From: an uncultured Endomicrobiia bacterium
GTDB lineage: Bacteria > Elusimicrobiota > Endomicrobiia > DTEH01
NCBI GenBank assembly: GCA_937928765.1
Contig: CALFVX010000001.1
Span: 16,246-80,245, forward strand
DNA: 64,000 bases
Direction of reading: 5' to 3'
The notes under the pieces were generated by a model. The model had not been told where the DNA came from. It saw only the letters and a program-made list of their open reading frames with translations, and did no database searches. Both the position numbers and the translations under genes were made by a program. Shown here in pieces: positions 2,119 to 37,983 of this stretch; positions within the stretch are counted from its first letter, which is position 1; each line of letters begins with the position of its first letter.

Positions 2119-2147
2119 TTGACAAATTGATGCAAAATGTGTATATA
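2119..2147 (+). promoter_or_regulatory. Sigma70-like promoter (TTGACA, 17-nt spacer with TG, TATATA) upstream of the M23 peptidase gene
   Basis: TAGTTGACAAATTG...TGTGTATATA. It is one of three near-identical promoter blocks in the window, the others being at about 25765 and 55316. Confidence 0.45.
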
Positions 2148-2164
2148 TAAAAAATGTTAGGTAT

Positions 2165-3115: not shown

Positions 3116-3139
3116 TTTTTTAATAAAAAGGAGTTTTAT

Positions 3140-3544: not shown

Positions 3545-3548
3545 GTTT

Positions 3549-4484: not shown

Positions 4485-4579
4485 AAGTTTAAAAACTTTT
4501 AATTTACAATTTTTGTTGATTTAAGTATAAATTTTTTATATTAAATTCAACAAAATCTAAATAAATAGATTTTAAAAAA

Positions 4580-5194: not shown

Positions 5195-5204
5195 TTTTTA
5201 AAAG

Positions 5205-5927: not shown

Positions 5928-5935
5928 AATATAAT

Positions 5936-6409: not shown

Positions 6410-6444
6410 TAAAAAATTTTTTAAATATAAATAAAAAATAAATT

Positions 6445-7062: not shown

Positions 7063-7103
7063 AATTTCAATGTTAAAAAACTTACCTAAAAATTTTTTGT
7101 TTT

Positions 7104-16998: not shown

Positions 16999-17016
16999 AT
17001 ATAGAGGAGTAATATT

Positions 17017-18135: not shown

Positions 18136-21100
18136 GAATAAAAGATTATTTTGAAAAAATTGTAATATTAAGAATTCTGTTTTTAGTTTCTAGATTTGTT
18201 ATAACAGCAGTTAATGTGATAATTGGATTCTTTGTATTAAGTATGTTAATAGATAAAATTTTACCGTTGCCTATTATAATTTTTCACATTTATTGGTTTA
18301 TTATTTTAGGAGTGATTTTTATATTTTTTATTAATCTTATCGTAAGAGTTGTAGAACTTAAAGTAAAACCTTATTATTATATTATGGAATCTATAAACAA
18401 ATATTTAAGGTTAGAAAATAAAGATGCTGTAATTAATGCTTTTTTATTAGAACAAAATTTAGTCTATGATAAAAATTTGAATTTTTCTTCTGAGTTAGCT
18501 AGCGAATTTATTAAAAATGTAAAAGAAAAATTGTTAGAAATAAAACCAAAAAAGATAGTTGAATTTGAAAAAATTTTTAAAGTCTTACCACTTAATTTTA
18601 TACTAATTTCTTTAGCTTTTATACTTTACATATACCCTCCATATGTAATCAAAGAAGGTGTATATAAAATTCTATTTACAAGAAATCCGGAAATACTAGG
18701 TATTTTTATTATGCCTAAAAATATAAAAATTCCCTATAAAGAAAGTTGTGAAATAAAAGTTATTATAGATAAAAATTATGAACTTTATATTCCGGCTTTA
18801 TTTGTAAAAACAAAAAATTTTGATAAGTTTGTGAGAGTAAATTTTGATTCTCAAGAAAATTTTTTAAATAGGAAAATATATAAATATAAAATAAATTCTA
18901 TAGAAGAAAAAATATTTTATAAAATAAAATTTCGTGGAGTAAAAACTAAAACTTTTGTTATAGATCCGATTCTATATCCTGAGATTTCTAAAATAAAAAT
19001 TTTTGTATCTCCTCCAGAATATACAGGAATAGAACCTTATGAAATAAATAGTTTTAATGCAACAAAATATTTTTATAACACTAACATAAAATTTACAGGT
19101 ACAACAAATAAAAAGGTAGAAAATGTAAATCTTTTGTTTAGCGATGGTGAGAAAATAATACTTTCATTAGATAAAAATAAAACAAATTTTTATGGAGAAT
19201 TTAAAATAACTAAAGACACAGAATTATGGTTTGAAATTACTGATACAGAAAATATGAACAACTTTGAAAAATTAAGATATAAAATAAATATTTTAGAAGA
19301 TAAATATCCTGAAATTAAACTTATTTCTCCTCAAGATGAAATTGTAGTTGAGCCTAATGTTAAAATACCACTAGTTTTTTCTTGTAGAGATGATATTTCT
19401 TTAAAAAAGGTTGAGTTGGTATATTATATTAACAACGATGTGAAAAATAAAATAAAAATTAAAGAATATCTTCAAAAAACAAAAGAAGATTTAGAAGAAT
19501 ATATTTTTGATCTAAGTAAATTAAAAGTTAATTTTGGAGATGTTATAAGTTATTATTTTATCGTATATGATAACAATCCTTATAAAAGTCAATATAATCT
19601 CTCTTCTGTACAAAAGATAGAAATTTTTAGCTATGAAAAACAACATAACAATATACAAAAACAAATAGAGGAATTTAATAAAAAATCTCTGGATTTACTT
19701 TCTAAAGAGATTGAATTAAAAGAATTTTTTTTAACCAAAACTACTACAACAGCAAATTTTAATGATGATTTACAAAAATTTATTATTTCTCATTTAAAAA
19801 CAAAAGAAGATTTTGATAATTTGGAAAAAATAATTTCTTCTATTGTAGAAAATATGTCAAAAGATCCATATACTTCGTTTGATACATATATAGAATTTAA
19901 AAATATAGAATCTTTAATTAAAGAGTTAAAAGAAGAAATTTTTCCAAAACTTTTAGATGAGTTAAGAGATAAAAATTTGTCTAAAGCAGAAGAATCTCAG
20001 CAACAAATTGTAGATAGTTTAGAAAGAATTACAGGATTATCTAATGAAATTGTTAAAAAACAAAATATGCATAATATAGCAGAAATTGCTAGAGATATAA
20101 AAAGTTTTAGTGAAGATATTTTCGAAATTTTGAAAAATTCAGATAAAAATATTTCTGAAGAAGAAAAAAATAAGATAAAAAATTTGCTTAAAGAAATTGA
20201 AGATAAATTAAAAAAAATAAATGATTTGATCAAAAATATGCCACAGGATTTGCCAATTGAGTTTGTTAACCAAAGAGATATACAAAATTTAGATTTATTT
20301 TCACCAACAGATTTAATACAAAAAATTGTCTCTGCTATAGAACAAAACAATCTTTCTTTGGCAACAATGTTAGCAAAAAATTTGTTGTCCCAGTTAGATT
20401 ATATAACTAAAAAGATTTCTCAGCCAAGCTATGAAATAGCTTTATCTGGGACATCATATTTAGATAAGGAGCTAAAGGAGTTGATTAGTAATTTGGATGA
20501 AATTATTTTTGAAGAAGATGAGATATATAAAAATACAAAAAAGATTGAAAACTATAGAATAACAGAAGTTTTAAAGCATCAAGAAGACAAAAAGGACATA
20601 ATAAAAAATCATATTGAGGAAATAAAAAATGAGATTAATAAAGTATTAAATACAGATGAATTTAATCAATTTGTAAATAAAAACATTTATAAACAAAATT
20701 CTTTAAAAGCTATAAATAATTTAAATGCGGTAATTTTAGAAACAGAAAAAAATATATTTTTAAAGACAGCACAATTAATAGAAGATAGCAAAAAAATATG
20801 GATGAATAACTTTGATTTAATTAATGATTTAGATATAGAAATATATAGAGTTTTAATAGAAAAAACAAAAATTGTAAAAGAAAAAATTGATGAATTACAT
20901 AAAATTGTAAATTTAGAACCGGAGATAAAATATAAAAGTGAAATATTAAAAAAAAATGAAGAGTTGATATATAAGCAAGAATTTGTAATTAATAAAACAA
21001 AAAATTTTAGAGAAAAATTAAAATCTTTAGGTAAAAAGAGCTTTATTATTTCTTACAAAGATATACTAATCACTAACCAGTCTATAAATTCAATGAATAA

Positions 21101-21440
21101 TTCAAAAGAATTTTTAGAAATAAAAAACTTTTCTTTGGCACTACAAGAACAAAATTCTGCAATAAATCTATTGTTAAAATTAAGGAATAAGTTTAATGAT
21201 AAAAAATCTATGATGCAACAAATATTAAATTCTATTGGTAAACCTATAGCGGAAAAATTGCAATATAAATCTTCTGCTGGTAAAATTGGTGTTATTGAAG
21301 GAAGAGTGTTGTTACCTTCTGTAAAAGATTATGAACCACCAAAAGAGTTAAGAGAAGAGATAATAAAGTCGTTAAGCGAAAAATATCCTAAAGAGTTAGA
21401 AAATATATTACAAAAATATTATCAAGAAATTTTAAGATGA
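18132..21440 (+). CDS. Large (1102 aa) membrane-anchored coiled-coil protein of unknown function
   Basis: N-terminal 3-4 TM helices followed by a long K/E/I/N-rich helical region. It is ATGA-coupled both upstream and downstream. Confidence 0.45.
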   Translation: MRIKDYFEKIVILRILFLVSRFVITAVNVIIGFFVLSMLIDKILPLPIIIFHIYWFIILGVIFIFFINLIVRVVELKVKPYYYIMESINKYLRLENKDAVINAFLLEQNLVYDKNLNFSSELASEFIKNVKEKLLEIKPKKIVEFEKIFKVLPLNFILISLAFILYIYPPYVIKEGVYKILFTRNPEILGIFIMPKNIKIPYKESCEIKVIIDKNYELYIPALFVKTKNFDKFVRVNFDSQENFLNRKIYKYKINSIEEKIFYKIKFRGVKTKTFVIDPILYPEISKIKIFVSPPEYTGIEPYEINSFNATKYFYNTNIKFTGTTNKKVENVNLLFSDGEKIILSLDKNKTNFYGEFKITKDTELWFEITDTENMNNFEKLRYKINILEDKYPEIKLISPQDEIVVEPNVKIPLVFSCRDDISLKKVELVYYINNDVKNKIKIKEYLQKTKEDLEEYIFDLSKLKVNFGDVISYYFIVYDNNPYKSQYNLSSVQKIEIFSYEKQHNNIQKQIEEFNKKSLDLLSKEIELKEFFLTKTTTTANFNDDLQKFIISHLKTKEDFDNLEKIISSIVENMSKDPYTSFDTYIEFKNIESLIKELKEEIFPKLLDELRDKNLSKAEESQQQIVDSLERITGLSNEIVKKQNMHNIAEIARDIKSFSEDIFEILKNSDKNISEEEKNKIKNLLKEIEDKLKKINDLIKNMPQDLPIEFVNQRDIQNLDLFSPTDLIQKIVSAIEQNNLSLATMLAKNLLSQLDYITKKISQPSYEIALSGTSYLDKELKELISNLDEIIFEEDEIYKNTKKIENYRITEVLKHQEDKKDIIKNHIEEIKNEINKVLNTDEFNQFVNKNIYKQNSLKAINNLNAVILETEKNIFLKTAQLIEDSKKIWMNNFDLINDLDIEIYRVLIEKTKIVKEKIDELHKIVNLEPEIKYKSEILKKNEELIYKQEFVINKTKNFREKLKSLGKKSFIISYKDILITNQSINSMNNSKEFLEIKNFSLALQEQNSAINLLLKLRNKFNDKKSMMQQILNSIGKPIAEKLQYKSSAGKIGVIEGRVLLPSVKDYEPPKELREEIIKSLSEKYPKELENILQKYYQEILR

Positions 21441-25764: not shown

Positions 25765-25793
25765 TTGACAAATTGCACTTTTTTGTATATTTA
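25765..25793 (+). promoter_or_regulatory. Sigma70-like promoter (TTGACA at about 25765-25770; -10 TATTTA/TATAT about 17 nt downstream) driving the riboswitch-led operon
   Basis: TAGTTGACAAATTGCACTTTTTTGTATATTTATATTAATTGG is nearly identical to the block at 55312-55350. Confidence 0.45.
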
Positions 25794-25841
25794 TATTAAT
25801 TGGCAGGGGCAACAAAAAGTTCTTAAAATATTAAGATTAAT

Positions 25842-25934
25842 TTCCTTCACGCGATAAAGGCAAACCCTGAGTAATCAGGGGGCGCAAAGCTATAGGGTCC
25901 TTCAGATGAGGGGCAGCCAGCTGCCGAAGGAAGG
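25842..25934 (+). promoter_or_regulatory. Cyclic-di-GMP-I (GEMM) riboswitch in the 5' leader
   Basis: CACGCGAUAAAGGCAAACCCUGAGUAAUCAGGGGGCGCAAAGCUAUAGGGUCC...GGGGCAGCCAGCUGCC carries the GEMM-I hallmarks GGCAAACC and GGCGCAAAGCUAUAGGG with a GNRA-like tetraloop hairpin. Flanking P1 strands UCCUUC/GAAGGA overlap the SD, and the ATG is at 25938. Confidence 0.7.
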
Positions 25935-25937
25935 AAA

Positions 25938-26399
25938 ATGAAAGTAGAAGAAAATTTTTTTGCTTTCAAAAAAACATTTTACAAAAATTTTACATACTCT
26001 TTCCTTACTTTACTTTTTAGTATAATACTTATAAAAAATCTTTTGTTATCAAATCATAACATACAAAACTTACCTAATAATGATTTAAAATTTAGCAAAA
26101 GCTCTTATAGCACTATAAATTTTTATTCTGAAGAAGGTATTATAGTTAATTTTCCTAATCCGTTTAGTAATTTCACTTATATTTATGTTAGATTGCCTAA
26201 AAAAGATGATTGTATAATAAAAATATACGATTTGTTTGGTAATTTGATTAAAGAATTTAATCTATCTGGCGAAGATAAATATATGTTGGTTTGGGATGGA
26301 AGAAATTTTAATTCTGAAAAGGTATCAAAAGGCGGATATATTTGTGTCTTACAATATAGTGGTAAAAAAATTATAAGAAAAATAGGTTATTTAAGATGA
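25938..26399 (+). CDS. Small membrane-anchored protein consisting essentially of a T9SS C-terminal sorting (CTD) / FlgD-Ig-like beta-sandwich domain
   Basis: FPNPFSNFTYIYVRL...CIIKIYDLFGNLIKEFNL...WDGRNFNSEKVSKGGYICVLQYSGKKIIRKIGYL matches the Por_Secre_tail / FlgD_ig consensus. There is no cargo domain. Confidence 0.55.
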   Translation: MKVEENFFAFKKTFYKNFTYSFLTLLFSIILIKNLLLSNHNIQNLPNNDLKFSKSSYSTINFYSEEGIIVNFPNPFSNFTYIYVRLPKKDDCIIKIYDLFGNLIKEFNLSGEDKYMLVWDGRNFNSEKVSKGGYICVLQYSGKKIIRKIGYLR

Positions 26400-28003
26400 A
26401 GCTAAATAACAACAATAATATCTTTTTTGTTTTTGAATTTAAAATAAAAGTATGGGTTATTATTTTTTTGTTTTTATTTAATAATATTTTACAATCTTCT
26501 TACACAGGAGGCCAACCTGCAGAATTTTTACAATTTGGTGCTTCAGCAAAAGGTATGGCTATGAAAGCATTTTTTTCTATTTCAGATGATGCATCTGCAG
26601 TATATTATAATCCAGCAGGACTTGTACAGTGTGATAGAAAAGAAATTTTAGCCTTGCATACTGAACTTTTTCCTAATACTCAAACAATATATGATTTTAT
26701 AGGTTTTGTTTATCCTACGATAAAATATGGTATTTTTTCTTTAGGGATTACACAGTTGTTATCTACTGGATTTGAAAAAATCGAGATAGAATACGATTCT
26801 TCTTCAGAGGATATCATCAGAATAGAAAATAAAGGTACTTTTGATGATAGACAAATTGCTATTTTGTTAGGTTATGCTAAAGAAGTTGTTGAACATATAA
26901 ATTTAGGTGTCGGGTTTAAATATATTTCTAGAAAGTTAGATATTTATTCTGATACAATGATAGGTAGCGATATTAATGTATTAGTGAGTGGACTAAATTC
27001 AAAATTGCCAAAACTTAATGTTGCTTTTGGAATAAAAAATTTAATTTCTACTAAAAGTGGCACTGAAGATAGTTTGCCTATAATATTTAAATTAGGCAGT
27101 TCCTATAAGTTTATGAGAGACAGGTTAGTTTTAGGTTTTGATATTGAGAAAAATATAAATTCAGAGTTGAAATGGATGTTGGGAACAGAATATTGGTTAT
27201 TGGAGTTTTTTGCTTTGAGATTAGGATTTGAAGGTTTGAGTTATTTAAAAGAAACAACTGCAGGATTAGGGTTTAAATATAAAGATTATCGCGTAGATTA
27301 TTCCTTTGCATATCACGAATTGGGTTTTTCTCATAGAATTTCTGCAGATATAAAATGGGGTAAATCAGTAAAATTTGACCGAGAAGAAGAGATAAAAAGA
27401 TTAATTAACGAAACCATTGCTTTGTATACTGCAGGAAAGTTTATGGAAGCTGCAAAAAAAGCCGAAACAGCATATCAATTAGATCCTAACAAAAAAGATG
27501 TTAAAAAAATTCTTGATAATTTACTTTTGATAACAGCTTATATTCGTTCTGCAACAGAAGATACTGAAGAACATCAGGGTATAAGAAGGGCAACTTTATC
27601 TTTGATGGAAAACGATTTTGCTGGAACAGTTAATGCTTTAAGATATGCATATTATAAGAATCCAACTAATAAATCATTACATCAACTGTTAAATCGTATT
27701 GAACAAATAGCTGGAATGACTCTTACCGAAGCTTATAGGGAAGAAGTTGCTGGTTGGTCTATAATAGATAAAAAGATTTATGAAGCAAGAGAAGATGTTT
27801 TAAATGGTAGATACACTGACGCCATAAGAAAATGTCAGGAAATACTTAATTTAGAGCCAAAAAATACAACTGCACTTGAAATTATGGGTTCTGCCTTCTT
27901 TATGATGAATGAGATAGATAAAGCAAAAGCTGTCTGGAAAAAAGTCTTAGAATTAGATCCAACGAACAAGGTTATACAACAATTTTTACAAGAATTAGAA
28001 TAA
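26396..28003 (+). CDS. Outer-membrane beta-barrel protein (FadL/PorV-like N-terminal motif) with C-terminal TPR repeats
   Basis: Signal peptide, then FGASAKGMAMKAFFSISDDASAVYYNPAGL, which is the FadL/TodX/PorV-type hallmark. It has an alternating beta-strand pattern, and the last ~200 aa are TPR-like. Confidence 0.5.
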   Translation: MKLNNNNNIFFVFEFKIKVWVIIFLFLFNNILQSSYTGGQPAEFLQFGASAKGMAMKAFFSISDDASAVYYNPAGLVQCDRKEILALHTELFPNTQTIYDFIGFVYPTIKYGIFSLGITQLLSTGFEKIEIEYDSSSEDIIRIENKGTFDDRQIAILLGYAKEVVEHINLGVGFKYISRKLDIYSDTMIGSDINVLVSGLNSKLPKLNVAFGIKNLISTKSGTEDSLPIIFKLGSSYKFMRDRLVLGFDIEKNINSELKWMLGTEYWLLEFFALRLGFEGLSYLKETTAGLGFKYKDYRVDYSFAYHELGFSHRISADIKWGKSVKFDREEEIKRLINETIALYTAGKFMEAAKKAETAYQLDPNKKDVKKILDNLLLITAYIRSATEDTEEHQGIRRATLSLMENDFAGTVNALRYAYYKNPTNKSLHQLLNRIEQIAGMTLTEAYREEVAGWSIIDKKIYEAREDVLNGRYTDAIRKCQEILNLEPKNTTALEIMGSAFFMMNEIDKAKAVWKKVLELDPTNKVIQQFLQELE

Positions 28004-28014
28004 TTTTTAGGAGG

Positions 28015-29922
28015 ATGTTTATGAATATATTGAAAACAAATATAAATTTTTATATAAAAAATTATATGTTAAAACATATAAGCAAAGTTTTAATCCTAAT
28101 TATTCTTGCCACATTTCTACACCCACAACAAACAATTCAACAACTTTCTGCAGATCAACAGATAACTCCGGCAATGTTGCTTGAATATGAAACCAAGTTG
28201 GAACAGCAAAGGACAGAATATGTACAAAAAAATATTCTTGATAAAATTTTTGGCCCCAATAGATCTACAGTAATGATAGATATTACTTTAGGATTAAAGA
28301 CAACTACTACAAGACAACAGGCTTCTGCAAAAAAGCTTGATGCAAAAAGAAAATTAGGAGATACAGAATATTTACTACCCGGTATACCAAAACCTGGTTC
28401 TATTGCAGAGTCAGCTGTTCCAGCAGAAGCAAAAGGTGAGGCATCTGGTACTGAAATTATCGGAGTAAATACAGAGATAGTTATACAAAAGCAGAGTATT
28501 ACTGTAATATATGATGAAAAAATCAAAGATAATAAAGTAGAAATGGTTAGAGATGCTATTGCAGCAGCATTAGATATAAGAAAAAAAGAAACAATAGTAT
28601 TTAAGAAAGCAAAGTTTACTACGAATGTTTTGGAAAAATTTTTTGAAAATATTTTGTTACCAAAATATCTTATACCTTTGATAATAACTTTATTGTTATT
28701 AATGTTTTTGTTTGGTCCCATAGCAGATTTTTTAAGAAATTATATAAGAATGTTAAGAGAAAGATCACCCACAGAAATTTCTATAGACTCTAAACTTGCC
28801 AAAGAAGGAGAGTCGCCAACTGAAGGATTAACAGGAGCAGCTGGTGCAAGTGGAGTAGGAGGTGTATCTACAGGGTTGACAGAGGAAGAATTACAAGAAA
28901 AAGAAAAAATTAAAAAAGAAGAAAAATATATACCATTTAGTTATATAGATGACAGTAATATAAAGAGGTTAACATACTTAATAGCAAAAGAGAAACCAGA
29001 AGATATAGCTATTGTGCTTAGCTATTTAAAACCAGAGTATGTTAAACAAGTAATTGAAAGTTTTAAACCACATTTGCAAGCAGAGGTAGCAGTTGCTTTA
29101 GCTCAAGCAAGAGAAATACCGCAAGAAGATATTGTTCGTATGGATAACTATGTAAAAGAAAGAATTGATTTTTTGGTTGGAGGTATGCATCATCTTATAG
29201 AGTTATTACAGAAAGTAGATAAAACTACCCGAGATAATATATTAGAGTATCTTAAAAATGAAAAACCAGATATATATCAAAAAGTTCGTCCACAAATATT
29301 TTTGTTTGAAGATATTATTGATATTCCTGATATAACTTTACAAACTATTATTCGTGAATTAAAACCAGAAAATATTGCTCGTGCTTTAAGAAATGCTCCT
29401 AAAGAATTAGTTGATAAATTTTTTAAAAATATGTCAGAAGGAGCACAGGCACTTGTGAGAGAAGAAATTGACTATGGAAGGCCAATGACAAAAGAACAAA
29501 TTGAAGAAGAACAGAATAAAATTGTAGAATTAATTAAAAGAATGGAACAAGAAGGAAAAATTTATATTAAAGAAAGAGGAAAAACTTTTTTAATTGATGC
29601 AAGCGAAATTGTTTCAGAAACACAAAGAAATAAAAAAACAAATATAGAAGAATCTTTAGGATATGAGTATTATATTCAAGGTATAGATTTTTATCAACAA
29701 GGTGATTTTGAAAATGCAGTAACATATTTACAATATGCAACAGAATTAGATCCACAATTAAAAGAAGCATATCAATATCTTGGAAATATTTATTATGAAT
29801 CAGGGCAATATCAAGAAGCATTGAATTATTACAAAAAAGTTATAGAGATTAATCCAGAAGATAAAGAGTTTGCTTTATGGGTTGAAGAATTTGAAAAATC
29901 ATTATCAGTATCATCAATGTAA
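28015..29922 (+). CDS. Two-TM membrane protein with periplasmic segment, cytoplasmic FliG-like (middle plus C-terminal torque-helix) domain and C-terminal TPR repeats
   Basis: IAIVLSYLKPEYVKQVIESFKPHLQAEVAVALAQ compares with FliG IALILSYLDPDQAA..L..E.L..EV..RIA. FEDIIDIPDITLQTIIRELKPENIARALRNAPKELVDKFFKNMSEGAQALVREEIDYGRPM...EEEQNKIVELIKRMEQEGKIYI compares with FliG FEDIVNLDDRSIQRVLREVD...ALKGA..ELREKF..NMSKRAAEMLREDLE..GPV...VE.AQ..I...RRL...GEIVI. Confidence 0.6.
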   Translation: MFMNILKTNINFYIKNYMLKHISKVLILIILATFLHPQQTIQQLSADQQITPAMLLEYETKLEQQRTEYVQKNILDKIFGPNRSTVMIDITLGLKTTTTRQQASAKKLDAKRKLGDTEYLLPGIPKPGSIAESAVPAEAKGEASGTEIIGVNTEIVIQKQSITVIYDEKIKDNKVEMVRDAIAAALDIRKKETIVFKKAKFTTNVLEKFFENILLPKYLIPLIITLLLLMFLFGPIADFLRNYIRMLRERSPTEISIDSKLAKEGESPTEGLTGAAGASGVGGVSTGLTEEELQEKEKIKKEEKYIPFSYIDDSNIKRLTYLIAKEKPEDIAIVLSYLKPEYVKQVIESFKPHLQAEVAVALAQAREIPQEDIVRMDNYVKERIDFLVGGMHHLIELLQKVDKTTRDNILEYLKNEKPDIYQKVRPQIFLFEDIIDIPDITLQTIIRELKPENIARALRNAPKELVDKFFKNMSEGAQALVREEIDYGRPMTKEQIEEEQNKIVELIKRMEQEGKIYIKERGKTFLIDASEIVSETQRNKKTNIEESLGYEYYIQGIDFYQQGDFENAVTYLQYATELDPQLKEAYQYLGNIYYESGQYQEALNYYKKVIEINPEDKEFALWVEEFEKSLSVSSM

Positions 29923-29957
29923 GAAAGGATATTCTTCCACATCAGGAGGAATTAAAA

Positions 29958-32900
29958 ATGAGTATATTTGATAATATAAAAAATAAGTTAAATAAAAAAG
30001 AAAAAACAGAAACAGATGATAAAATAGAATTTTCAAATAAAAATGACGAGTATATACAAACAGATATGAATGATCCTATTATGTTAAAAGAAAACATACT
30101 TGCACAGATAAGGTATCTTGAACAAAAAATACAACAAGAAAGAGAAGAATTAATAAATCATCTTAAGTCTAAGGAAGAAGAAAAGGTTTCTTTAGAAATG
30201 AAGTTAAGTAATTTAGAATATAAAATTAATTCTAATAGGAATAATTTTGAAAAAGAAATAGAAAAATTAAGAGCAGATTTAGAAAGAGAGTTCCAACGTT
30301 TAAATTCAGAATATAATGAAGAAATTTCTTCTTGGGAAAAGATGTTAAATGTTAAGCAGAACGAAATAGAACAGTTGAGAAACAAAGCAGTATTTGAAGA
30401 AGCACAAAATAAAATGTTATTAGAACAAAAACAACAAGAAGTTAAACAAGAGATAGAAAGATTACAAAATAATCTAAAATTGTTAGAAAGACAGTTTGAG
30501 GAAGAAAAGAGCAAGTTTCATAGACGAATAGAAGAAAAAGATGAAGAAATTTTTAAATTAAAATCTTTAATAGAACTTAAAGAAAAACAACTAAAAGTTG
30601 AAGAAGAGAAATTTTTGTTATCAGCAAAAGATTTAAATGCCAAACGGCTACAGCAGATAAGTGAGATGCAGAAAAAATTTGAAGAAAAAATAGAAAATTA
30701 TAAGAAGTTATATAAGGCAAAAGATGAAGAATTTTTTACTGTAAAATATGTTTTGGAACAAAAACATTCAGAATGGGAACAACAACAAAAAGAAATGATT
30801 TCAAATTTAGAAAAATCAAAGAAAGATTATGAAAACAGGATAGGTCTTCTTAAAGAAGAAATAAAAAGTCATCAACAAGAGTTTGAAAAATTAATACAAG
30901 AGAAAGAAGAAGAAATAAAAAAATTAAAAGTAGAAATTATGTTAAAAGAAACACAATTTAATTCATTGATAGAACAAAAAAAGAAAATATTGTTAGAAGA
31001 AGAACAAAAGATAAAACAACAACTTTTTGATATTGAACAGAAATTTACAAAAGAATATGAAAACTATAATAAGTTGATACAAGACAAAGATCAAGAAATA
31101 ATGCATTTACAACTGATACATCAGCAGCAGTTGTCTAAGCTTAGAGAAGATTGGGATATAAAGATAAAAAAGTTATATGAAGAAAAAGAAGAATTAGAGA
31201 AAAAGATTCCTGAATTAGTTTCACAATTAGAAGAGATGAAATCAAAAGTAGCAAGTATTATGCAAGAGAAGAAGAGTTATATAGCAAAAATAAAGAAACA
31301 GAATAATGAGAAATTGCAAGAATTGAAAGAAAAATTAGAAAATACAATTAAAGAGATGTTAGAAAAAAATCAAAAATCAGAACAAGAATATAAGTTAAAA
31401 AAAGAAGAATTTGAAAACAAAAAAAATACATTAAAAATAGCACTGCAACAAAAAGAGTTAGAATTAAAAGAATTAAAAGAAAAATTAGAAAATGAAATTG
31501 AAAAAGAAAAAAACAGAGTGTTTTTGTTTGAACAAGAAATGAGACAAAAAAATTTACCTTTATATGAAAAAGTTAGTTTATTAAAAGAGGAAATTAAAGA
31601 TACGGAGAATAAAATACAGGATATTTTAAAAGCAAAAGATAAAGAAATACAGCATATTAACTTTAAGTATGAAATGTTAGAGAAGAATTTACAACAGAGA
31701 TATAGTAATGAATTAGAAAGTATTCAAAATAAAAAAATTTTATATGAAGAAAGGATTCTTCAGTTAAGAAATGAATTGAGTAAAATAGAACAAGAAAATA
31801 ATTTGAAGCTACAACAATATGAAAATGAAATAAAAGAAATACAAAACAATATAAATTTTTTAAATGAAAAAACAGAAGTAGAAAAAAGGAAAATAATAGA
31901 AGAAAACGAAAAAATAAAATATCAGTTGAATGAAGAAATTAAAAAATTAGAATGTAGATTAAATGAACTTATAAAAGAAAAAGAACAAATACTTAGTTCT
32001 AAACAACAAGAGGTTGATAGCTTAAATAATAAAATTTTAAATTTAGAAAAACAAAAGTATACTGAGATTGAAATGTTAAATAAAGATTGGCAACAGGAAG
32101 AAGAAAAGTTAAAGTTTAATATTCAACAATTAGAAGAAATTATAAAAGCAAAGATGGAAGAATATAAGACAAAAGTTATTCAAAAACAAAATGAATTGGA
32201 TTTGTTGAAAGAAAAATTTGCTAAAGAAGATTCAAATACGAGAAAAGATGTTGATAATTTAAAAATAAATTTAGAACAACAAAACTTACCTTTAGTTGAA
32301 AAACAGAAAGAAATTTTAAAAGCAATAGATGAATTACAAAAGGAAATGCAAGAAAAAGTTATTGAATATGATAAAAAAATTAATGATTTAAAAATTGAGT
32401 TAGATGATAAAATAAAACAATTTTCTGACATTGAACAGAAAAAGAAACAAGAAATAAAAATCTTAAGAGAAAAACTTAAAAGTTATTTGTTTACAAAAGA
32501 AGCACGAATTAAAGAATTGCAGACAGAATATGAGGAAAGGATTAAGCAGATAGAAAAAGAAAAGCAAGATTTTATTTTAGAACATAACAAAAAAATTCAA
32601 GAGTTAGAAATGACAAAAGATGGCATTGTTGAAAAATATAATATAGAAAGGCAGAAATTATTAGAAAATATTGATAATCTCACAATACAACTTAATAATT
32701 TTCAAGAAGAGATGCCAGAAGTTATTTCTGAAAAAGAAAAGGAAAAAGAAGAGTTGATTGTGCAGCTACAACAAATACAGAAAGAATATGCTGAAAAATT
32801 TGAAAATTTAAAGAACATGCAGATTACTTTACAAGAAAGACTAGAAAAAAGGATAAATAATTATCAAAAAATTATAAATTCTTTAAAGGAAGAACAAGAA

Positions 32901-34766
32901 AGAAAGATATATCAAAAACAGCAGGAGTTTGATAAAGTTAAAGAAGAATTAAAAGAAAAAGAAAACAGATTGTTAGAAGAAATAAGAAATTTGAATGAAA
33001 AAAATACTACAGAAATTGATAGATTAAAACAACAGAAAGAAAATCTTATCAAAAAAATAGAAGAGTTAGAGGCCACAAGTAAACAAATAATTAATAAGTT
33101 AGACTCAGAAATATTACAGATTAAGACAGAAATTATATCTAAAAAAGAATCTTTTGAACAAGAATGGACATTAAAACAAACAGATTTTGAAGATTTAAAA
33201 AATTCTTTAAACATTGAAATAGAATCTTTAAAAGTTAAGTTAAAAGCTGAAGAAGATAATTATAAAATTAAACTTATTGAAAGAACACAAGCACTTGAGA
33301 ATCTTAAAAAAGAATATGAGAATAGATATCAGCAATTGTTAAATGAATTTAACAATAAAAAAAATGACTTTAATGTTAAAATAGAAAAATTAAATATTAA
33401 AATTGCAAATTTGGAAGAAGAATTGAGGTCAAAGCAAGATTATTATTCTGCTTTGCAAAAAGCTAAAAAAGAAGAGATAGATAATATAAAATCTGAACTT
33501 TCTAATTTGGAAATAAATACTAAAATTGAAGAAGAGAAAAGGCAAAAAGAACTATCTTTACAACAGCAGAAATTAAAAGAAGAATTGGAAATATTAAAAC
33601 AACAATTAGAAATACAACGTGATAAATATATTGAAGAATTAAATAATAAAATAGCTGAAGAACAAAAAATTACAAACGATTTTAGACAAAAAGAAAAAGA
33701 GCTATTAGAAAAAATGACTCAAATAGAGGAAGAATATAATACTAAGAAACAACAATATCAGGTAGAATTGTCAAAATTGCAGAAACAATTAAAATTATTA
33801 TCTGAACAAAATGAAAAATTAATATCTGAGTTGGATAAAGAAATAGAACAAAATAATACAAAGATTGCTTTAAAACAAATTGAATTTAATACAATGAGAC
33901 AAAAATTTGAATTTGAATTTAAGAAACTTGTTTTACAGTATCAACAACAGAAAGAAAAAATTATTAGAGATTTTAATAAAGAAAATGAAGAGTTGATAGA
34001 ATCAATAAAAACAAAAGAAAATGAAATTGATACTATAAAGATGAGATATAATATAAGACAAAAAAGTATAGATGAAGAAATTAAAAGAAGAAAAAATTTT
34101 ATAGTAAAAGAATTATCTGAGTTAGAAAATGAGATTAAAAATATGGAAAATGTCTATGATGTAAAAAGTAAAGATTATGAAATACAAATTAACAGGAAAA
34201 AAGATCTTATTTCAAAGTTGAAATCTGAATTAGATAAATTAATTTTTTGCTGGGATGAAGAAAAAGAAAAAATTCTTAAAGAGAAACAAGAAAATAAAAA
34301 ACAATTAGATGAAGAGATAAATATTTTAAAGCAGAAATTAGATGAATACAAAACATATATTAACGAACTCATAATGAAAATAGAATCAAAATTTAAATTA
34401 GAACAAGAATTACTTGATTTTAAAGATTTTGAATTTATCAAAGAAAAACATATAACTTATAATACATTAGATAAAATTTATAGCTTGGTTACAAAAGATA
34501 AAACTAAATCAGAAATTAAGTTCAATAAAAATTTATTAGATGAAGCATTGATGTATTTTGATAACAAACAGTATGATTTATCTATAAAAAAATTTTTAAT
34601 TTTATTAGAACAAGATAAAAACAACGAGTTGTTAAATCAATATTTAGCATTATGTTATTATAACATTAAAGATTTTAAAAAAGCTAAAGAATATGGATTA
34701 AAAGTTTTAGAAATAAATCCTAACAATGAAATTATTAAATCCTGGCTTAAAGAAATAATTGAATAA
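29958..34766 (+). CDS. Giant (1602 aa) coiled-coil protein with C-terminal TPR module
   Basis: Continuous E/K/L/Q/N heptad-rich sequence with no globular ATPase head, and a TPR-like terminus (QYLALCYYNIKDFKKAKEYGLKVLEINPNN). Strong AGGAGG RBS. Confidence 0.6.
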   Translation: MSIFDNIKNKLNKKEKTETDDKIEFSNKNDEYIQTDMNDPIMLKENILAQIRYLEQKIQQEREELINHLKSKEEEKVSLEMKLSNLEYKINSNRNNFEKEIEKLRADLEREFQRLNSEYNEEISSWEKMLNVKQNEIEQLRNKAVFEEAQNKMLLEQKQQEVKQEIERLQNNLKLLERQFEEEKSKFHRRIEEKDEEIFKLKSLIELKEKQLKVEEEKFLLSAKDLNAKRLQQISEMQKKFEEKIENYKKLYKAKDEEFFTVKYVLEQKHSEWEQQQKEMISNLEKSKKDYENRIGLLKEEIKSHQQEFEKLIQEKEEEIKKLKVEIMLKETQFNSLIEQKKKILLEEEQKIKQQLFDIEQKFTKEYENYNKLIQDKDQEIMHLQLIHQQQLSKLREDWDIKIKKLYEEKEELEKKIPELVSQLEEMKSKVASIMQEKKSYIAKIKKQNNEKLQELKEKLENTIKEMLEKNQKSEQEYKLKKEEFENKKNTLKIALQQKELELKELKEKLENEIEKEKNRVFLFEQEMRQKNLPLYEKVSLLKEEIKDTENKIQDILKAKDKEIQHINFKYEMLEKNLQQRYSNELESIQNKKILYEERILQLRNELSKIEQENNLKLQQYENEIKEIQNNINFLNEKTEVEKRKIIEENEKIKYQLNEEIKKLECRLNELIKEKEQILSSKQQEVDSLNNKILNLEKQKYTEIEMLNKDWQQEEEKLKFNIQQLEEIIKAKMEEYKTKVIQKQNELDLLKEKFAKEDSNTRKDVDNLKINLEQQNLPLVEKQKEILKAIDELQKEMQEKVIEYDKKINDLKIELDDKIKQFSDIEQKKKQEIKILREKLKSYLFTKEARIKELQTEYEERIKQIEKEKQDFILEHNKKIQELEMTKDGIVEKYNIERQKLLENIDNLTIQLNNFQEEMPEVISEKEKEKEELIVQLQQIQKEYAEKFENLKNMQITLQERLEKRINNYQKIINSLKEEQERKIYQKQQEFDKVKEELKEKENRLLEEIRNLNEKNTTEIDRLKQQKENLIKKIEELEATSKQIINKLDSEILQIKTEIISKKESFEQEWTLKQTDFEDLKNSLNIEIESLKVKLKAEEDNYKIKLIERTQALENLKKEYENRYQQLLNEFNNKKNDFNVKIEKLNIKIANLEEELRSKQDYYSALQKAKKEEIDNIKSELSNLEINTKIEEEKRQKELSLQQQKLKEELEILKQQLEIQRDKYIEELNNKIAEEQKITNDFRQKEKELLEKMTQIEEEYNTKKQQYQVELSKLQKQLKLLSEQNEKLISELDKEIEQNNTKIALKQIEFNTMRQKFEFEFKKLVLQYQQQKEKIIRDFNKENEELIESIKTKENEIDTIKMRYNIRQKSIDEEIKRRKNFIVKELSELENEIKNMENVYDVKSKDYEIQINRKKDLISKLKSELDKLIFCWDEEKEKILKEKQENKKQLDEEINILKQKLDEYKTYINELIMKIESKFKLEQELLDFKDFEFIKEKHITYNTLDKIYSLVTKDKTKSEIKFNKNLLDEALMYFDNKQYDLSIKKFLILLEQDKNNELLNQYLALCYYNIKDFKKAKEYGLKVLEINPNNEIIKSWLKEIIE

Positions 34767-34785
34767 TTAATAGGAGGACAAAATT

Positions 34786-37700
34786 ATGGCAGAAGAAAAA
34801 AACAAACAATTTGTTCCAAAACCACCATTGATTAATAAACCTGCTCAAGGGTTTATACAAAAACCGCCTTTGCCAAAAATTAATTTACCACAGTCACCAA
34901 AGATACAAGATAAATTACAACAAGGTATGGCTAATTCTGGAATATCATCTGCACCACAATTTTCAACTTCTATAGAACAACGTCTATGGGAAGCAGAACA
35001 AGCTAAAAGACAAATGGAAATTCAACTGCAGGAATTACAAAAAATGTTGTTGGAAGAAAGAGAAAAACTTATGATGCAGACTATAAAAACTAAAGAAGAA
35101 GAAAGTTTAGCTGCTAAAGTTGAAGAAAGTATTAAAGATATTCAAGAGAGGTTAAGAAGGGAGAAAAGAGAACAAGAACTTCAAGAAGAGAAAGAAAAGT
35201 TGTTGAAACAAATTAAAGAATTAGAGGAACGTCTAGTTAAAGAAAGAGAAACTTGGATTGAAACACTTAAAACACAACTTTCTCAAAGAGATTTACAAGA
35301 ACAACAAATAGAGCAACAGTATTTGTCTAAAATAAGAGATTTGGAATCAAGATGGCAAGAAGAAAAGTCAAAATTTCAATTTATTTTGAGGTCTAAAGAT
35401 GAAGAAATAAGTAAAATAAGAAATGAATATAAAATTTTAGAAGAAAAACTCAAAGCAGAAGTTGAAAAACAAATTTCCGAATACAAATTTGAAAAGAAAA
35501 ATTTTGAAACAGAAATTAAAAATTTAAAAACCATAATTGAAGATAAAGAAAAAGAAATAATTTCTTTAAAATCACAAATATCTACAATTATTTCAGAATC
35601 AAATATAAAAAAAGATAAAACAGATTTTGAATTAAAGAAAAGAGAAGAACATATTGCAAAATTACAAAGTATTTTAGATAATATGAAATCTGAAATTAAT
35701 GTTTTGAAAAAACAAAAAGAACAAAATGAAAAAGATTTTTTTATATTAAAAGCACAGATGGGTATAATACAAGCAAAACATAAAACAGAGTTAGAAAAAC
35801 TTTCTGAAAAAAAAGATTTAGAATTAAAATCAGTTCAACAATTAGTTGAGCAGTTAAAAAAGAATTTAGAAAACAAAAATGAGATAATTAAAAATTTAGA
35901 AGTGGAAATAGAAAACTATAAAAAAGAAAAAGAAAAATATGTCTCTGAAAAAGAGAATGAAATTAATATTTATAATGAAAAGCTAAATTCTATAGCCAGT
36001 TTATTGAAGAACAAGGAAGATTATATAAATAAACTTAACCAAGATTTTTCTAAATTAGTCCAAAATAAGGAAAATTTAGAAGAAAAATCTAAAATTTTGG
36101 AAGAAGAAAATAATAAACTTAAAGTTGAATTAGAGAAAAATCTACAGCAGAGAGATGCTGAATCTAAATTGTATCAACAACAAATTTTAGAACTACAGAA
36201 ACAAATTAATGATAAAATCAATTATGTTATGAAATTGGAATTAGAATTAGACAAAAATAGATCTTATTTATTACAGAAGGAACAAGAAAATAATAATCTT
36301 AGGTTAGAATTAAATAGCTTATTGCAAGAGATAGAGTTAAATAAACAAGTAGTTGATGAAATAAAAAAAGAGATATTACTTAAAGATGATCTATTAAGGA
36401 ATTTAAATTTTGAGTTAGAGAAGACAAAATCTAATTTAGAAAAGAAAATTTTAATATTAGAACAGAAAGAAAAAGAGTTAAAACAAATTTTAGAAAAAAA
36501 TGAATACTTAGAAAAAAGTTTAAAACATAAAGAAGAATTGGAAGGAAATTTAAAAGATTTAATAGATAAGATGAAAACAGAAATATCTAAGTTAGAAAAT
36601 GAAATAAAAGTTTCAAAAATAGAAAAGGAAAAGTTAGAAATAGAAGTTAAGAGATTTTTAGAACAATATGAACTAGAAAAAAATAATAATCAATTGCTTG
36701 TTTCTCAACTTCAGGAGAGTAAAGTTAATATAAACAAATTGGAGTTGCAATTAGAAAAATATAAATCAGAATTAGATTTGGCTAATCAAGTGTTGTCAAA
36801 CAGAGAGAAAGAAATAGATAACTTTAAAGAGATTAACATAAGTCTTAAGCAAGAATTGGTAATTAAAGATGAAAAAATTAATAAGATAGAGAATGAAAAT
36901 AAATTACTTATATCAGAATTAGAAAGAACAAAAAATGATTTTGAATTATATTTAAATGAATACAATAAAATTAAATTAGAGTATGAGAAATTAAAAAATA
37001 ATTTTAATGAAGAATTAAACAAAGTAATTTCTGAAAAGTTATTCCCTTATGAAGAACATATTAAAAATATAGAATTTGAAAATCAGAAGTTATTGCAAGA
37101 GCTACAAACTAAGAATACAAAAATAGAAGAATATATAGACTCTATTAAAAATTTAAGTCAGAAGCTAGATAATTTATATAAAGATTATGAAAAACTACAA
37201 CAAGAAAACCAGCAAAAAGAGCAAAATATTTTTTCTCTTAGAGATTTAATTTCAGATTTACAACAAGAAAAAGATAAATTTTTAAAAGAAATAAAAGATT
37301 ATGAATTAGAATTAATAAATAAAAATAATAAAGTTTACGAGTTATCAGAATTAGTTCAGCAGAAAGAAACTGAGATTAAGAAATTTTCTGAAGATATAGA
37401 TGTTTACACTAAGGAAATTAATAATTTAATGTCTACCATAGAAAGCCTCAATATTAAAATAAAAGAACTAGAAGAGAAAAGTAAAGAAGAGAAAGAAAGC
37501 TTGATTTCTGAAAAAAGAATTTTAGAACAAAAGGTAAAAGATCTAATTGAAACAAACGAAGAAAAAAAAGAAACAATTTCAAGAATAAATTCAGAATTAG
37601 ATAATATTAGGAAGAAATATGAACAAGAAAAATTGCAAATTGAAAAACAATATAATGAAAAATTGGAAATTTTGCAAAAAAATCATGAGACTACAATAGA

Positions 37701-37983
37701 TAAAATAGATATTGCTTGGAAAAGGATACATTCAAAATTATTAAGTGAATATCGTTTGTTGGAAAAAAAATTGAACCAAAAAGATGAAGAAATATCAAAA
37801 TTAAAATCAAGATTAGAAACAATAAGTTTAGCTAATGATATTAAGAACAATAAAATTAAAGTGAAAAATTCAAAAATTATAAGTGAAGAAGATGGTGTTA
37901 TTGATATTAACACAAGATATGATAAGAAAAATTTGTTTTTAAGAATTTGGTTGTGGTTAAATAAGCCAATATTGAAAATATAA
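34786..37983 (+). CDS. Giant (1065 aa) coiled-coil protein with Pro-rich N-terminus and hydrophobic C-terminal tail
   Basis: N-terminus PKPPLINKPAQGFIQKPPLPKINLPQSPK, a ~950-aa heptad coiled coil, and a C-terminal NLFLRIWLWLNKPILKI. GGAGG RBS located 19 bp after the upstream stop. Confidence 0.6.
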   Translation: MAEEKNKQFVPKPPLINKPAQGFIQKPPLPKINLPQSPKIQDKLQQGMANSGISSAPQFSTSIEQRLWEAEQAKRQMEIQLQELQKMLLEEREKLMMQTIKTKEEESLAAKVEESIKDIQERLRREKREQELQEEKEKLLKQIKELEERLVKERETWIETLKTQLSQRDLQEQQIEQQYLSKIRDLESRWQEEKSKFQFILRSKDEEISKIRNEYKILEEKLKAEVEKQISEYKFEKKNFETEIKNLKTIIEDKEKEIISLKSQISTIISESNIKKDKTDFELKKREEHIAKLQSILDNMKSEINVLKKQKEQNEKDFFILKAQMGIIQAKHKTELEKLSEKKDLELKSVQQLVEQLKKNLENKNEIIKNLEVEIENYKKEKEKYVSEKENEINIYNEKLNSIASLLKNKEDYINKLNQDFSKLVQNKENLEEKSKILEEENNKLKVELEKNLQQRDAESKLYQQQILELQKQINDKINYVMKLELELDKNRSYLLQKEQENNNLRLELNSLLQEIELNKQVVDEIKKEILLKDDLLRNLNFELEKTKSNLEKKILILEQKEKELKQILEKNEYLEKSLKHKEELEGNLKDLIDKMKTEISKLENEIKVSKIEKEKLEIEVKRFLEQYELEKNNNQLLVSQLQESKVNINKLELQLEKYKSELDLANQVLSNREKEIDNFKEINISLKQELVIKDEKINKIENENKLLISELERTKNDFELYLNEYNKIKLEYEKLKNNFNEELNKVISEKLFPYEEHIKNIEFENQKLLQELQTKNTKIEEYIDSIKNLSQKLDNLYKDYEKLQQENQQKEQNIFSLRDLISDLQQEKDKFLKEIKDYELELINKNNKVYELSELVQQKETEIKKFSEDIDVYTKEINNLMSTIESLNIKIKELEEKSKEEKESLISEKRILEQKVKDLIETNEEKKETISRINSELDNIRKKYEQEKLQIEKQYNEKLEILQKNHETTIDKIDIAWKRIHSKLLSEYRLLEKKLNQKDEEISKLKSRLETISLANDIKNNKIKVKNSKIISEEDGVIDINTRYDKKNLFLRIWLWLNKPILKI

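Follow-up and report, generated by a model that had tools for sequence, protein, structure and literature searches.

What would a bacterium from a phylum that is reported to lack flagella do with parts that resemble the core of a flagellar motor? The question is raised by a cluster of five genes (g1 to g5) in an uncultured Endomicrobiia bacterium of the Elusimicrobiota. The cluster lies in a stretch of 64,000 nucleotides (nt), hereafter called the window, which was taken from contig CALFVX010000001.1 of assembly GCA_937928765.1 (positions 16,246 to 80,245) and has a GC content of about 23%. From 5' to 3', the genes encode a small protein that is essentially a C-terminal domain (CTD) like those of type IX secretion systems (T9SS), a PorV-like outer-membrane barrel, a membrane protein with FliG domains and two giant coiled-coil proteins. 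A riboswitch of the cyclic di-GMP (c-di-GMP) I clan precedes them. A first-pass annotation, made from the sequence alone, had described five tightly packed genes on one strand behind a riboswitch. The positions and spacing of the open reading frames (ORFs) agree with this description, with gaps of 11 bp between g2 and g3, 35 bp between g3 and g4 and 19 bp between g4 and g5, and the cluster spans positions 25938-37983 (Table 1).

The same annotation had suggested that the genes encode an apparatus of the envelope, or one akin to a motility device, which is linked to c-di-GMP and had not been described before. The suggestion is supported by the present analysis, while the output of the apparatus is something that we infer. 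It is about an even call that the cluster represents the form, in Endomicrobiia, of an envelope machine that occurs throughout the Elusimicrobiota and in which the core of a flagellar motor has been reused. The full proposal, which stays a little short of an even chance, is that of a non-flagellar rotary nanomachine in flagellum-less Elusimicrobiota. In this machine a one-polypeptide FliF-FliG rotor, driven by MotAB/FlbD, would be coupled to the PorV-like barrel and would move or export CTD-tagged giant proteins under the control of c-di-GMP. The expectation that no canonical flagellar regulon is present elsewhere agrees with the report that Elusimicrobiota genomes lack flagellar machinery (PMC11257099).

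The FliG-like protein, a putative rotor

The cytoplasmic part of g3 is a true FliG homolog, as was claimed in the first pass, and not an unrelated armadillo fold. The Pfam families FliG_M and FliG_C are matched with 42.3 bits (cut-off 25) and 101 bits (cut-off 23.3), respectively. The hhalign comparison to residues 119-325 of E. coli FliG reaches a probability of 98.7% (E 1.5e-16), and the PDB profile match of this part is 1lkv (E 7e-58). The best Foldseek matches are structures of the FliG middle and C-terminal (MC) domains, with 32-34% identity to the Thermotoga FliG. This identity points to reductive descent from a flagellum, and not to a pre-flagellar relic. Over the whole protein, TIGR00207 gives 129.6 bits compared to an equivalog cut-off of 226.7, and only the profile positions 106-330 are matched. 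A separate FliG_N was not found in g3, as the lone FliG_N match is sub-threshold and overlaps with FliG_M. The FliG part is joined directly to a FliF-like part by a transmembrane (TM) helix and a linker.

The FliF-like part is periplasmic and only about 160 amino acids (aa) long, and RBM1 and RBM2 of FliF (PF01514) are absent from g3. It was aligned by hhalign to residues 221-432 of E. coli FliF with a probability of 77% (E 2e-5). Foldseek retrieves the MS-ring/RBM3-collar structures 6sd1_A, 6sd3_Q and 8z5v_A (E 1-2e-3, TM-score 0.43-0.47). PF08345 (YscJ_FliF_C) matches 6 of 22 members of the g3 family, the window protein not being among them. Based on the FliG_MC and the RBM3/collar-like matches, g3 appears to be a natural FliF(RBM3)-TM-FliG(MC)-TPR fusion, TPR denoting the tetratricopeptide repeat module at its C-terminus. 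Of the two TM segments that had been assigned to g3, the one at residues 212-241 stands. The N-terminal stretch, however, looks like a cleavable signal peptide in many homologs, and the topology may be a signal peptide plus one TM rather than two TMs.

Conservation in the g3 family is strict at L121, P122 and P125, in the LFLFGP motif of the TM helix and at the glycine pair G389 and G390. In the torque helix, g3 has E483 and E484 at the positions of D288 and D289 of E. coli FliG. The first of the two, E483, does not vary in 67 sequences; the second, E484, is strictly kept in the window-type group (layout A, see below), in 23 of 23 sequences. The entropy of the torque helix is 0.92 in this group and 1.11 in the stator-linked group (layout B). 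The better conservation in layout A argues that the FliG_C surface is still used there, although the existence of a stator in these lineages is not proved thereby.

About 209 close homologs with the full-length architecture of g3 were found among 5.8 billion proteins, and its N-terminal domain is present in only 72 clusters among 1.84 billion representatives at 50% identity. Even where identity falls to 31-35%, the relatives throughout the phylum have intact, full-length ORFs and an unchanged architecture. Their database names are generic ('tetratricopeptide repeat protein' or 'FliG C-terminal domain-containing protein'). The nearest protein relatives of the cluster belong to metagenome-assembled genomes (MAGs) of Endomicrobia and Elusimicrobiota. 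One NCBI protein that is identical to g3 over 633 aa (P0001) carries the label 'MAG: Candidatus Omnitrophica bacterium'. This is likely a taxonomic mislabel or binning label, since all relatives at 72-76% identity and below are Endomicrobia or Elusimicrobia.

The PorV-like barrel and the CTD proteins

The second gene was correctly recognised as a FadL/PorV-type outer-membrane barrel with the DDASA motif. It passes the NCBIfam model of the PorV/PorQ family (NF033709) with 109.9 bits (cut-off 90), and its homologs are named 'PorV/PorQ family protein' at NCBI. It stays below the equivalog cut-offs of PorV (NF033710, 35.4 vs 250), PorQ (NF033711, 40.9 vs 220) and PorV2 (NF052325, 59.5 vs 325). The AlphaFold2 (AF2) model, calculated with 22 homologs, contains 14 strands and 11 TPR-like helices at a mean confidence (pLDDT) of 83.6. 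The g2 protein contains the motif DDASAvyyNPAGL, and its residues N72, P73 and A74 do not vary among 22 homologs. The top PDB match is 8gl6_F (E 1.8e-11, TM-score 0.61), ahead of FadL and TodX. This chain, which we take to be PorV from its length of 367 aa, is part of a Flavobacterium T9SS complex with bound RemA-CTD. Given the even number of strands in the model, the TPR domain of g2 is predicted to be located in the periplasm.

The description of g1 as essentially only a T9SS-CTD/FlgD-Ig-like sandwich holds as well, be it marginally. Both curated cut-offs are passed, by Por_Secre_tail (PF18962) with 27.3 bits (cut-off 27) and by TIGR04183 with 25.0 bits (cut-off 23), so that the match is real but marginal. 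With both scores above their cut-offs and the domain at the extreme C-terminus (residues 72-149 of 153), g1 classifies as a T9SS type A CTD protein. Orthologs of 120-180 aa are found in the same position in 18 of the 20 loci that have the giant coiled coil, and together with MotA in one locus only.

Much larger CTD proteins are encoded by the relatives. In layout B and in some layout-A loci, giant proteins lie upstream of the riboswitch and PorV, and their last ~90 residues form a g1-type CTD that ends 1-3 residues short of the stop. At least 2,300-2,700 aa of these proteins are visible, and one was called at 12,255 aa. The latter gene (L004, positions 1-7718, from Elusimicrobia RIFOXYA2_FULL_39_19) is found upstream of the barrel gene with TPR domain (PorV-TPR) and ends in a g1-type CTD. 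With this length it would rank among the largest bacterial proteins.

PorV-TPR genes also occur beside large FlgD-Ig/CTD proteins without a FliG neighbor, namely in a Zixibacteria contig (L119, JAPLUQ010000557.1) and in two unassigned contigs (L120 and L121). In L119 the downstream genes encode a SpoIIE/HAMP phosphatase, a STAS protein and a GGDEF cyclase. The order in L121 is a giant, a 115-aa CTD-only protein, PorV-TPR and a truncated protein with an ILPGVP loop like that of g3. The small CTD-only protein is thus one of the conserved parts rather than the remainder of a broken gene. A PorV-TPR barrel paired with a CTD protein makes up an older module, onto which the Elusimicrobiota grafted the rotor.

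Gene order and stator genes in the relatives

For the distribution of the system one genome per species was scanned, which yielded 172 genomes with a g3 relative. The best 80 of these 172 were inspected by title, and nearly all are titled Elusimicrobia, Endomicrobia or Elusimicrobium. Gene order was then compared in 81 non-redundant loci (L002-L085 and the window), of which the called ORFs were searched with the genes of the window and those of a distant relative. The genes are syntenic across the phylum rather than scattered: PorV-TPR is found directly upstream of the FliG-like gene in 61 of 68 evaluable loci, and a g5-type coiled coil downstream in 53 of 58.

The first-pass annotation had proposed to look for stators in the genome. 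None was found in the window, but in 39 of 58 evaluable relatives FlbD, MotA and MotB follow in the same operon, usually together with a ~240-aa lipoprotein. The MotA proteins of these relatives, about 260 aa long, have four TM helices and both P173 and P222. Their best NCBIfam matches are MotP, MotA and PomA over the full length (218-240 bits), below the equivalog cut-off (240 vs 394). MotB contains the plug and OmpA-like domains, and FlbD (PF06289) is matched with 78.8 bits. In the alignment to E. coli, the proton-binding Asp of MotB (D32) is invariant, as are P173 and P222 of MotA. The R90 position of MotA is occupied by R or K and the E98 position by E or Q. The stator of the relatives is flagellar-type and looks functional.

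Different layouts were distinguished, and A, B and C match clades of the FliG-like tree. Layout A, with the order small CTD protein, PorV, FliG-like protein, giant coiled coil (1400-2100 aa) and g5-type protein, is that of the window and of other Endomicrobiia-like lineages. Most others have layout B, including a MAG titled Elusimicrobium minutum (L070): (giant CTD protein), PorV, FliG-like protein, g5-type protein, FlbD, MotA, MotB and lipoprotein. Layout B' (the group L024-L030) is organised like B but carries an extra ~583-aa coiled coil, and is a variant nested among the other layouts. Layout C consists of the FliG-like gene, FlbD, MotA and MotB only, with neither PorV nor a g5-type gene in cis. 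Loci of this last kind were considered as a second paralog beside window-type clusters in the same genomes. This was rejected: they form their own clade, and none of the assemblies among the best 80, including the complete chromosome OY969767.1, has two loci.

The giant coiled-coil proteins

Composition and periodicity agree with the view of g4 and g5 as giant coiled coils. The residues E, K, Q, L, I and N make up 72-74% of the two proteins and Pro and Gly 0.6-1.7%, and a periodicity of 3.5 residues (heptad-type) is enriched. In g4 the share of Pro and Gly is 0.6%, with one run of 659 residues free of both. If fully coiled, it would measure roughly 200 nm, as calculated from the rise per residue. 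Counterparts of more than 1400 aa occupy the same position in 20 loci, never with MotA in cis. The g5 protein starts with a Pro-rich N-terminus, followed by a conserved segment, a variable coiled coil and a hydrophobic/amphipathic C-terminal tail. By the conserved N-terminal segment, the gene can be recognised in the relatives downstream of the FliG-like one, including that for an 850-aa protein in L002.

No signal peptide or TM segment was found in g4 or g5, which places them in the cytoplasm rather than in the periplasm. Of the 'cytoplasmic or periplasmic filaments' suggested before, only the cytoplasmic option is thus retained. Likewise, the idea that four of the five proteins end in a TPR module or hydrophobic tail is upheld for g2 and g3 (strong TPR) and for g5 (hydrophobic tail), whereas the TPR of g4 is sub-threshold.

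Predicted control by a c-di-GMP-I riboswitch

The riboswitch ahead of the cluster is confirmed by Rfam. The GGC variant of the c-di-GMP-I aptamer (RF03167, clan CL00126) is matched above its gathering score (66.3 bits vs 59, E 1.9e-13, model positions 1-80 of 80), and the match ends 8 nt before the ATG of g1. From four aptamers an own covariance model (R1) was built, in which the window aptamer scores 87.6 bits. It detects 61 copies (the window and 60 more), all on the + strand and directly 5' of the first gene of the cluster. Overall, the riboswitch is located upstream in 48 of 68 evaluable loci. An Rfam check of layout-B loci confirmed six out of six, three as the GGC variant and three by the canonical model, and the aptamers of relatives match RF01051 at up to 92 bits. 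Among nine loci compared, RF03167 outscores the canonical model in four (the window, L002, L050 and L083), whereas the canonical model scores higher in L011, L013, L037, L070 and L075. The operon may therefore be a main natural context of the GGC variant, which has been little studied.

The leader of the window folds with a minimum free energy (MFE) of -38.2 kcal/mol (RNAfold, z = -3.3). In this fold, an 8-bp helix formed by UUUCCUUC and GAAGGAAA prolongs the closing stem of the aptamer over the Shine-Dalgarno region. With the Shine-Dalgarno hidden in this helix, the switch would act on translation and turn it OFF. Among the layout-B loci, more than 20 have their start codon 0-5 nt after the 3' end of the aptamer. 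Several layout-A loci contain a terminator hairpin with U-run, 120-190 nt downstream of the aptamer. The 5' flank of the terminator (GGUAACC) is complementary to the 3' strand of the aptamer (GGUUACC), and the two states differ by at most 2.5 kcal/mol. Tandem aptamers, two per leader, are present in eight loci (L013-L019 and L049) at 2.2-3.0 kb 5' of the FliG-like gene, and many of these leaders have a terminator hairpin after the aptamers. Three different expression platforms are thereby found, and the foldings and sequences of all three predict ligand-induced OFF, a polarity that is probably correct.

The 'single promoter' that had been assigned to the cluster fared less well. A TTGACA box is common to the leaders of four of the five closest relatives. 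The consensus scan, however, is uninformative and cannot confirm it, as the 84 promoter-like sites found are at chance level for DNA of 23% GC (78.7 expected). The terminator scan is likewise at chance.

The aptamer is also missing in layouts B' and C. In the five closest relatives of the window (L006-L010, with FliG-like proteins that are 72-76% identical to that of the window), the TTGACA box is mostly kept upstream of the small CTD gene (about 7560-7970 per locus), and some share the leader motif GGGAAGGGG...GCAACCG. The riboswitch has been lost or replaced within this subclade.

Proposed mechanism and alternatives

In the proposed machine, g3 would oligomerize to an MS-ring-like rotor in the inner membrane. 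A peptidoglycan-anchored MotAB, which would be encoded in trans in the lineage of the window, would turn this rotor via the acidic torque helix of FliG_C. The periplasmic ring of g3 would couple to the TPR domain of the PorV-like barrel, and the barrel would hold the CTD-tagged proteins, g1 in this case and giant adhesin-like proteins elsewhere. Proton-driven rotation could then move or release surface proteins, resulting in gliding-like movement or secretion. Such movement of surface proteins would resemble the SprB/SprF-GldLM gliding and type IX machinery of the Bacteroidota, with a different motor. The g4 and g5 proteins may serve as cytoplasmic scaffold or track, bound to the rotor by TPR contacts. 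Binding of c-di-GMP would turn expression OFF, as expected for a motility-type organelle.

Several points weigh against this proposal. All evidence is computational, and c-di-GMP is the putative ligand of the GGC-variant aptamer. No rod or driveshaft was identified, and the contact between the rotor ring and the TPR domain of PorV is one that we infer. The g3 protein resembles FliF to a modest degree (hhalign probability 77%, Foldseek E about 1e-3). The FliM-binding EHPQR motif is degenerate in g3, where KEKPE aligns to DEHPQ of E. coli and only E326 and P328 are conserved. Neither FliM nor FliN was found in any inspected neighborhood, and R281 of E. coli FliG aligns to a Gly. The aptamer is absent from L006-L010, the closest relatives, and all Elusimicrobiota isolates are reported to be non-motile (PMC11257099).

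The most serious of these points concern the stator. No gene for MotA, MotB or FlbD is present in the 64-kb window, and no stator gene follows the g5-type gene in L009 or L023. The giant coiled coil (>1400 aa) and the in-cis FlbD-MotAB are found in 20 and 47 of the 81 loci, respectively, and in no locus together, so that the version of the window could be stator-less. The stator of its lineage was searched by a MotA profile, and the 120 matches listed out of 1207 are all stator-linked Elusimicrobia types. When a metagenome collection was scanned with a DNA pattern that encodes the MotA motif FIRERHK with an AT bias, 31 loci were obtained. Only L092 and L100 are true stator loci, both being Elusimicrobium-like full operons. 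The supplementary tables of an Endomicrobia comparative-genomics paper contain none of the KEGG orthology numbers for motA, motB or fliG.

Among the alternatives, secretion or anchoring instead of motility survives best, although it is considered rather unlikely. The rotor-stator would then energize the outer-membrane export or surface attachment of giant CTD proteins, comparable to GldLM/PorLM in type IX secretion. The PorV-like barrel would shuttle or anchor these proteins, and g1 would occupy or plug the site at which CTDs bind. Such a function would fit the giant CTD genes immediately upstream of PorV in many loci, the pairing of PorV-TPR with giant CTD proteins without a FliG neighbor in the Zixibacteria-like contigs, and the top structural match of g2, a chain of a substrate-bound T9SS complex that is taken as PorV. 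The reported non-motility of the isolates (PMC11257099) speaks for it as well. In the Bacteroidota, moreover, type B CTD proteins are anchored by cognate PorP-like barrels encoded beside them (Gorasia et al. 2022, as cited in PMC12204202). However, neither a SprA-like translocon nor PorK/L/M/N-like genes are present in the window or the inspected neighborhoods. Being located 5' of the riboswitch, the giant genes do not share its control with the machine, and adhesin display usually responds to c-di-GMP in the direction opposite to the OFF predicted here.

Another alternative, for the lineage of the window, is a static anchor between envelope and cytoskeleton that does not rotate. The stator would have been lost and the g4-type protein of 1600 aa would have taken its place in the operon. 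The FliG domains would then only dock coiled-coil filaments, for cell shape, polarity or the positioning of adhesion sites. This scenario is improbable. The mutual exclusion of the g4-type gene and in-cis FlbD-MotAB (20 vs 47 loci) and the lack of a stator in the 64-kb window are in line with it, and the pair of bactofilin and M23 peptidase in the window shows that the organism has other cytoskeletal systems. Yet the torque helix, which in flagellar motors makes the contact to MotA, is no less conserved in the group with the g4-type protein than in the stator-linked group, its EE pair being invariant in 23 of 23. Layout C, with FliG, FlbD and MotAB but without PorV and with g5-type genes absent in cis, further shows that modules of the system can split across the genome.

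That the genes are decaying remnants of a flagellum or stand together by chance without joint function is strongly disfavored to the point of being negligible: only the FliG M and C domains and FliF RBM3 remain and the FliM-binding motif is degenerate, but the ORFs are full-length and intact, with an architecture that is kept throughout the phylum even at 31-35% identity, the gene order, the 4-bp overlaps and the shared riboswitch are conserved, and functional residues are invariant in MotA, MotB and FliG_C.

Comparison with known systems

A check against the defining features of the known families ruled out filing the cluster either as a flagellar remnant or as a T9SS. With the flagellar motor it shares FliG_M and FliG_C with the GG linker, as candidate counterparts the acidic torque helix and the RBM3/collar-like periplasmic domain that aligns to FliF 221-432 and, in the operon of the relatives, flagellar-type MotA, MotB (plug, D32 and OmpA domain) and FlbD. 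The natural fusion in g3 echoes the FliF-FliG fusions that were engineered for structure work (PDB 8z4d). In contrast to the flagellar motor, the cluster contains no FliG_N, no RBM1/RBM2 of FliF, no FliM and no FliN, and genes for an export apparatus, rod, hook or filament were absent from every inspected neighborhood. In addition, g3 carries a C-terminal TPR, and its partners are a PorV-like barrel, CTD proteins and giant coiled coils.

The likeness to the T9SS and gliding machinery of the Bacteroidota lies in the 14-strand barrel of the PorV/PorQ family, in the type-A-like CTDs at the extreme C-terminus of the giant proteins of relatives, of which the cargo gene adjoins the barrel gene, and in a proton-driven motor that is encoded together with barrel and cargo in the relatives. 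The motor here, however, consists of FliF/FliG and MotAB instead of GldLM. SprA, PorK/N, PorU and PorZ were not seen, the g2 barrel has a 210-aa TPR extension, predicted to be periplasmic, that PorV does not have, and the phylum is outside the Bacteroidota. A Pfam scan of the ORFs in the window, down to a length of 100 aa, found no MotA/ExbB, flagellar or type IX core protein; the lack of T9SS core genes among them means that the cluster cannot be placed in the T9SS.

The Agl-Glt focal-adhesion gliding complex of Myxococcus spans the envelope and combines a motor of the MotAB/TolQR family with outer-membrane barrels, several TPR proteins, the cytoplasmic coiled coil AglZ and a surface adhesin. 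Its architecture thus parallels that of the cluster. No homology to Glt or Agl proteins beyond generic TPR matches was found, however, the rotor here is FliG-based, and genes for MglA or MreB are not part of the cluster.

In Clostridioides difficile, the c-di-GMP-I riboswitch Cd1 is located upstream of the flgB operon and controls flagellar genes. The same can be observed here insofar as an aptamer of this clan precedes a motor-related operon, with a predicted OFF response to the ligand. The operon is non-flagellar in this case, several loci use the GGC variant, and translational and terminator platforms vary within one gene family.

The anti-phage system Zorya (ZorAB) has a motor of the MotAB family with a very long cytoplasmic coiled coil, which is part of ZorA itself. 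The association of a 5:2 motor of the MotAB family with such a coiled coil is what both systems share, ZorAB being listed among the 5:2 motors (PMC12204202). Zorya is devoid of FliG, PorV, CTD protein and riboswitch, and the MotA of the relatives studied here is of the normal-length flagellar type. Of all these systems, the cluster would come closest in its working to a cross between the flagellar rotor-stator and the SprB/SprF-PorV adhesin handling of the Bacteroidota.

Features and surroundings of the cluster

Table 1. Position of the genes, domains and regulatory elements of the cluster in the window
Feature	Residues (aa)	Position (nt)	Strand	Remarks
Candidate -35 box TTGACA		25765-25770	+	Read from the sequence; in leaders of 4/5 closest relatives (alignment)
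5' arm UUUCCUUC of helix extending P1		25841-25848	+	Pairs with 25930-25937 in RNAfold MFE and centroid
c-di-GMP-I clan aptamer, GGC variant		25845-25933 (Rfam match 25850-25929)	+	RF03167, c-di-GMP-I-GGC
3' arm GAAGGAAA, Shine-Dalgarno region		25930-25937	+	Directly before g1 ATG at 25938
g1	153	25938-26399	+	ORF
g1 CTD/FlgD-Ig-like beta-sandwich	72-149	26151-26384	+	After N-terminal hydrophobic signal; exported protein
g2	535	26396-28003	+	ORF; overlaps g1 by 4 bp
g2 barrel, 14 strands	82-321	26639-27358	+	AF2 model
g2 TPR domain, 11 helices	325-534	27368-27997	+	AF2 model
g3	635	28015-29922	+	ORF
g3 periplasmic domain	49-205	28159-28629	+	Alpha-beta-beta-alpha-beta ring-building motif (RBM), FliF RBM3/collar-like; loop LLPGIPxP
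g3 TM helix	212-241	28648-28737	+	Kyte-Doolittle 19-mer average >1.8; AF2 helix 216-249
g3 FliG middle and C-terminal domains	306-520	28930-29574	+	GG linker G389, G390; torque helix NMSEGAQALVREEIDY at aa 472-487
g3 C-terminal TPR module	550-634	29662-29916	+	TPR_2 56.8 bits, TPR_1 53.1 bits; pLDDT about 94
g4	1602	29958-34766	+	ORF
g4 short TPR-like end	1561-1590	34638-34727	+	TPR_2 21.7 bits (cut-off 27), sub-threshold
g5	1065	34786-37983	+	ORF
g5 conserved segment	~56-215	34951-35430	+	About 100-160 aa

The flanks of the cluster are unrelated to it. Upstream, a Bat-like operon is accompanied by a gene of the CCA/poly(A) polymerase family. This long operon (7104-21440, + strand) includes DUF58, BatA/VWA, DUF4159 and a GATase1-like protein, as well as two TMEM260-like glycosyltransferases with TPR ends, an MGDG synthase and a 1102-aa DUF4175-like protein. 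Downstream, two M16 peptidases, a solute-binding protein and a tRNA-Leu are encoded. Further upstream in the window (2165-3544, + strand), a gene for an M23 peptidase is directly followed by a bactofilin gene, a pairing that is typical of cell-shape modules.

At the end of the window, an ORF of at least 1947 aa (58158-64000, + strand) with an N-terminal hydrophobic anchor runs past the last position, its C-terminus lying outside. Its GC content is 38-39%, compared to about 23% in the rest of the window, and the sole Pfam match is a sub-threshold Big_13. It may be a giant surface protein. As the missing CTD cargo it was rejected, as it bears no similarity to the giant CTD proteins of the other loci.

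Implications

The combination of parts had not been recognised as a known system in the first pass, and a description of the cluster was not found in the searchable literature either (most subscription journals lie outside that search), be it under FliG, MotA or type IX systems of Elusimicrobia, under FliG combined with PorV, or under FliG, MotAB or FliF outside flagella. To our knowledge, a FliF/FliG rotor has only ever been seen within flagella. If true, the proposal would present the first flagellar rotor-stator pair that works outside the flagellum. It would also mean that gliding, or the handling of adhesins in the manner of type IX systems, had been solved independently a second time.

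A conserved operon of RBM3, FliG_MC, FlbD and MotAB in a flagellum-less phylum would define a minimal, self-standing rotor-stator module. Such a module bears on the assembly, reduction or co-option of the flagellar motor. Whether its origin is reductive or pre-flagellar, it would show which minimal sub-assembly of the flagellar motor can function alone. For the widespread c-di-GMP-I riboswitch, including its poorly understood GGC variant, the operon provides a target that is both defined and conserved, in a phylum that has received little study. The MAG titled Elusimicrobium minutum (L070) has the full operon, and if cultivated strains do too, the hypothesis becomes directly testable. Finally, the rotor module in combination with PorV-like barrels and CTD giants, parts that have so far been tied to type IX secretion and gliding of the Bacteroidota, suggests a new route by which the energy of the inner membrane may reach the cell surface.

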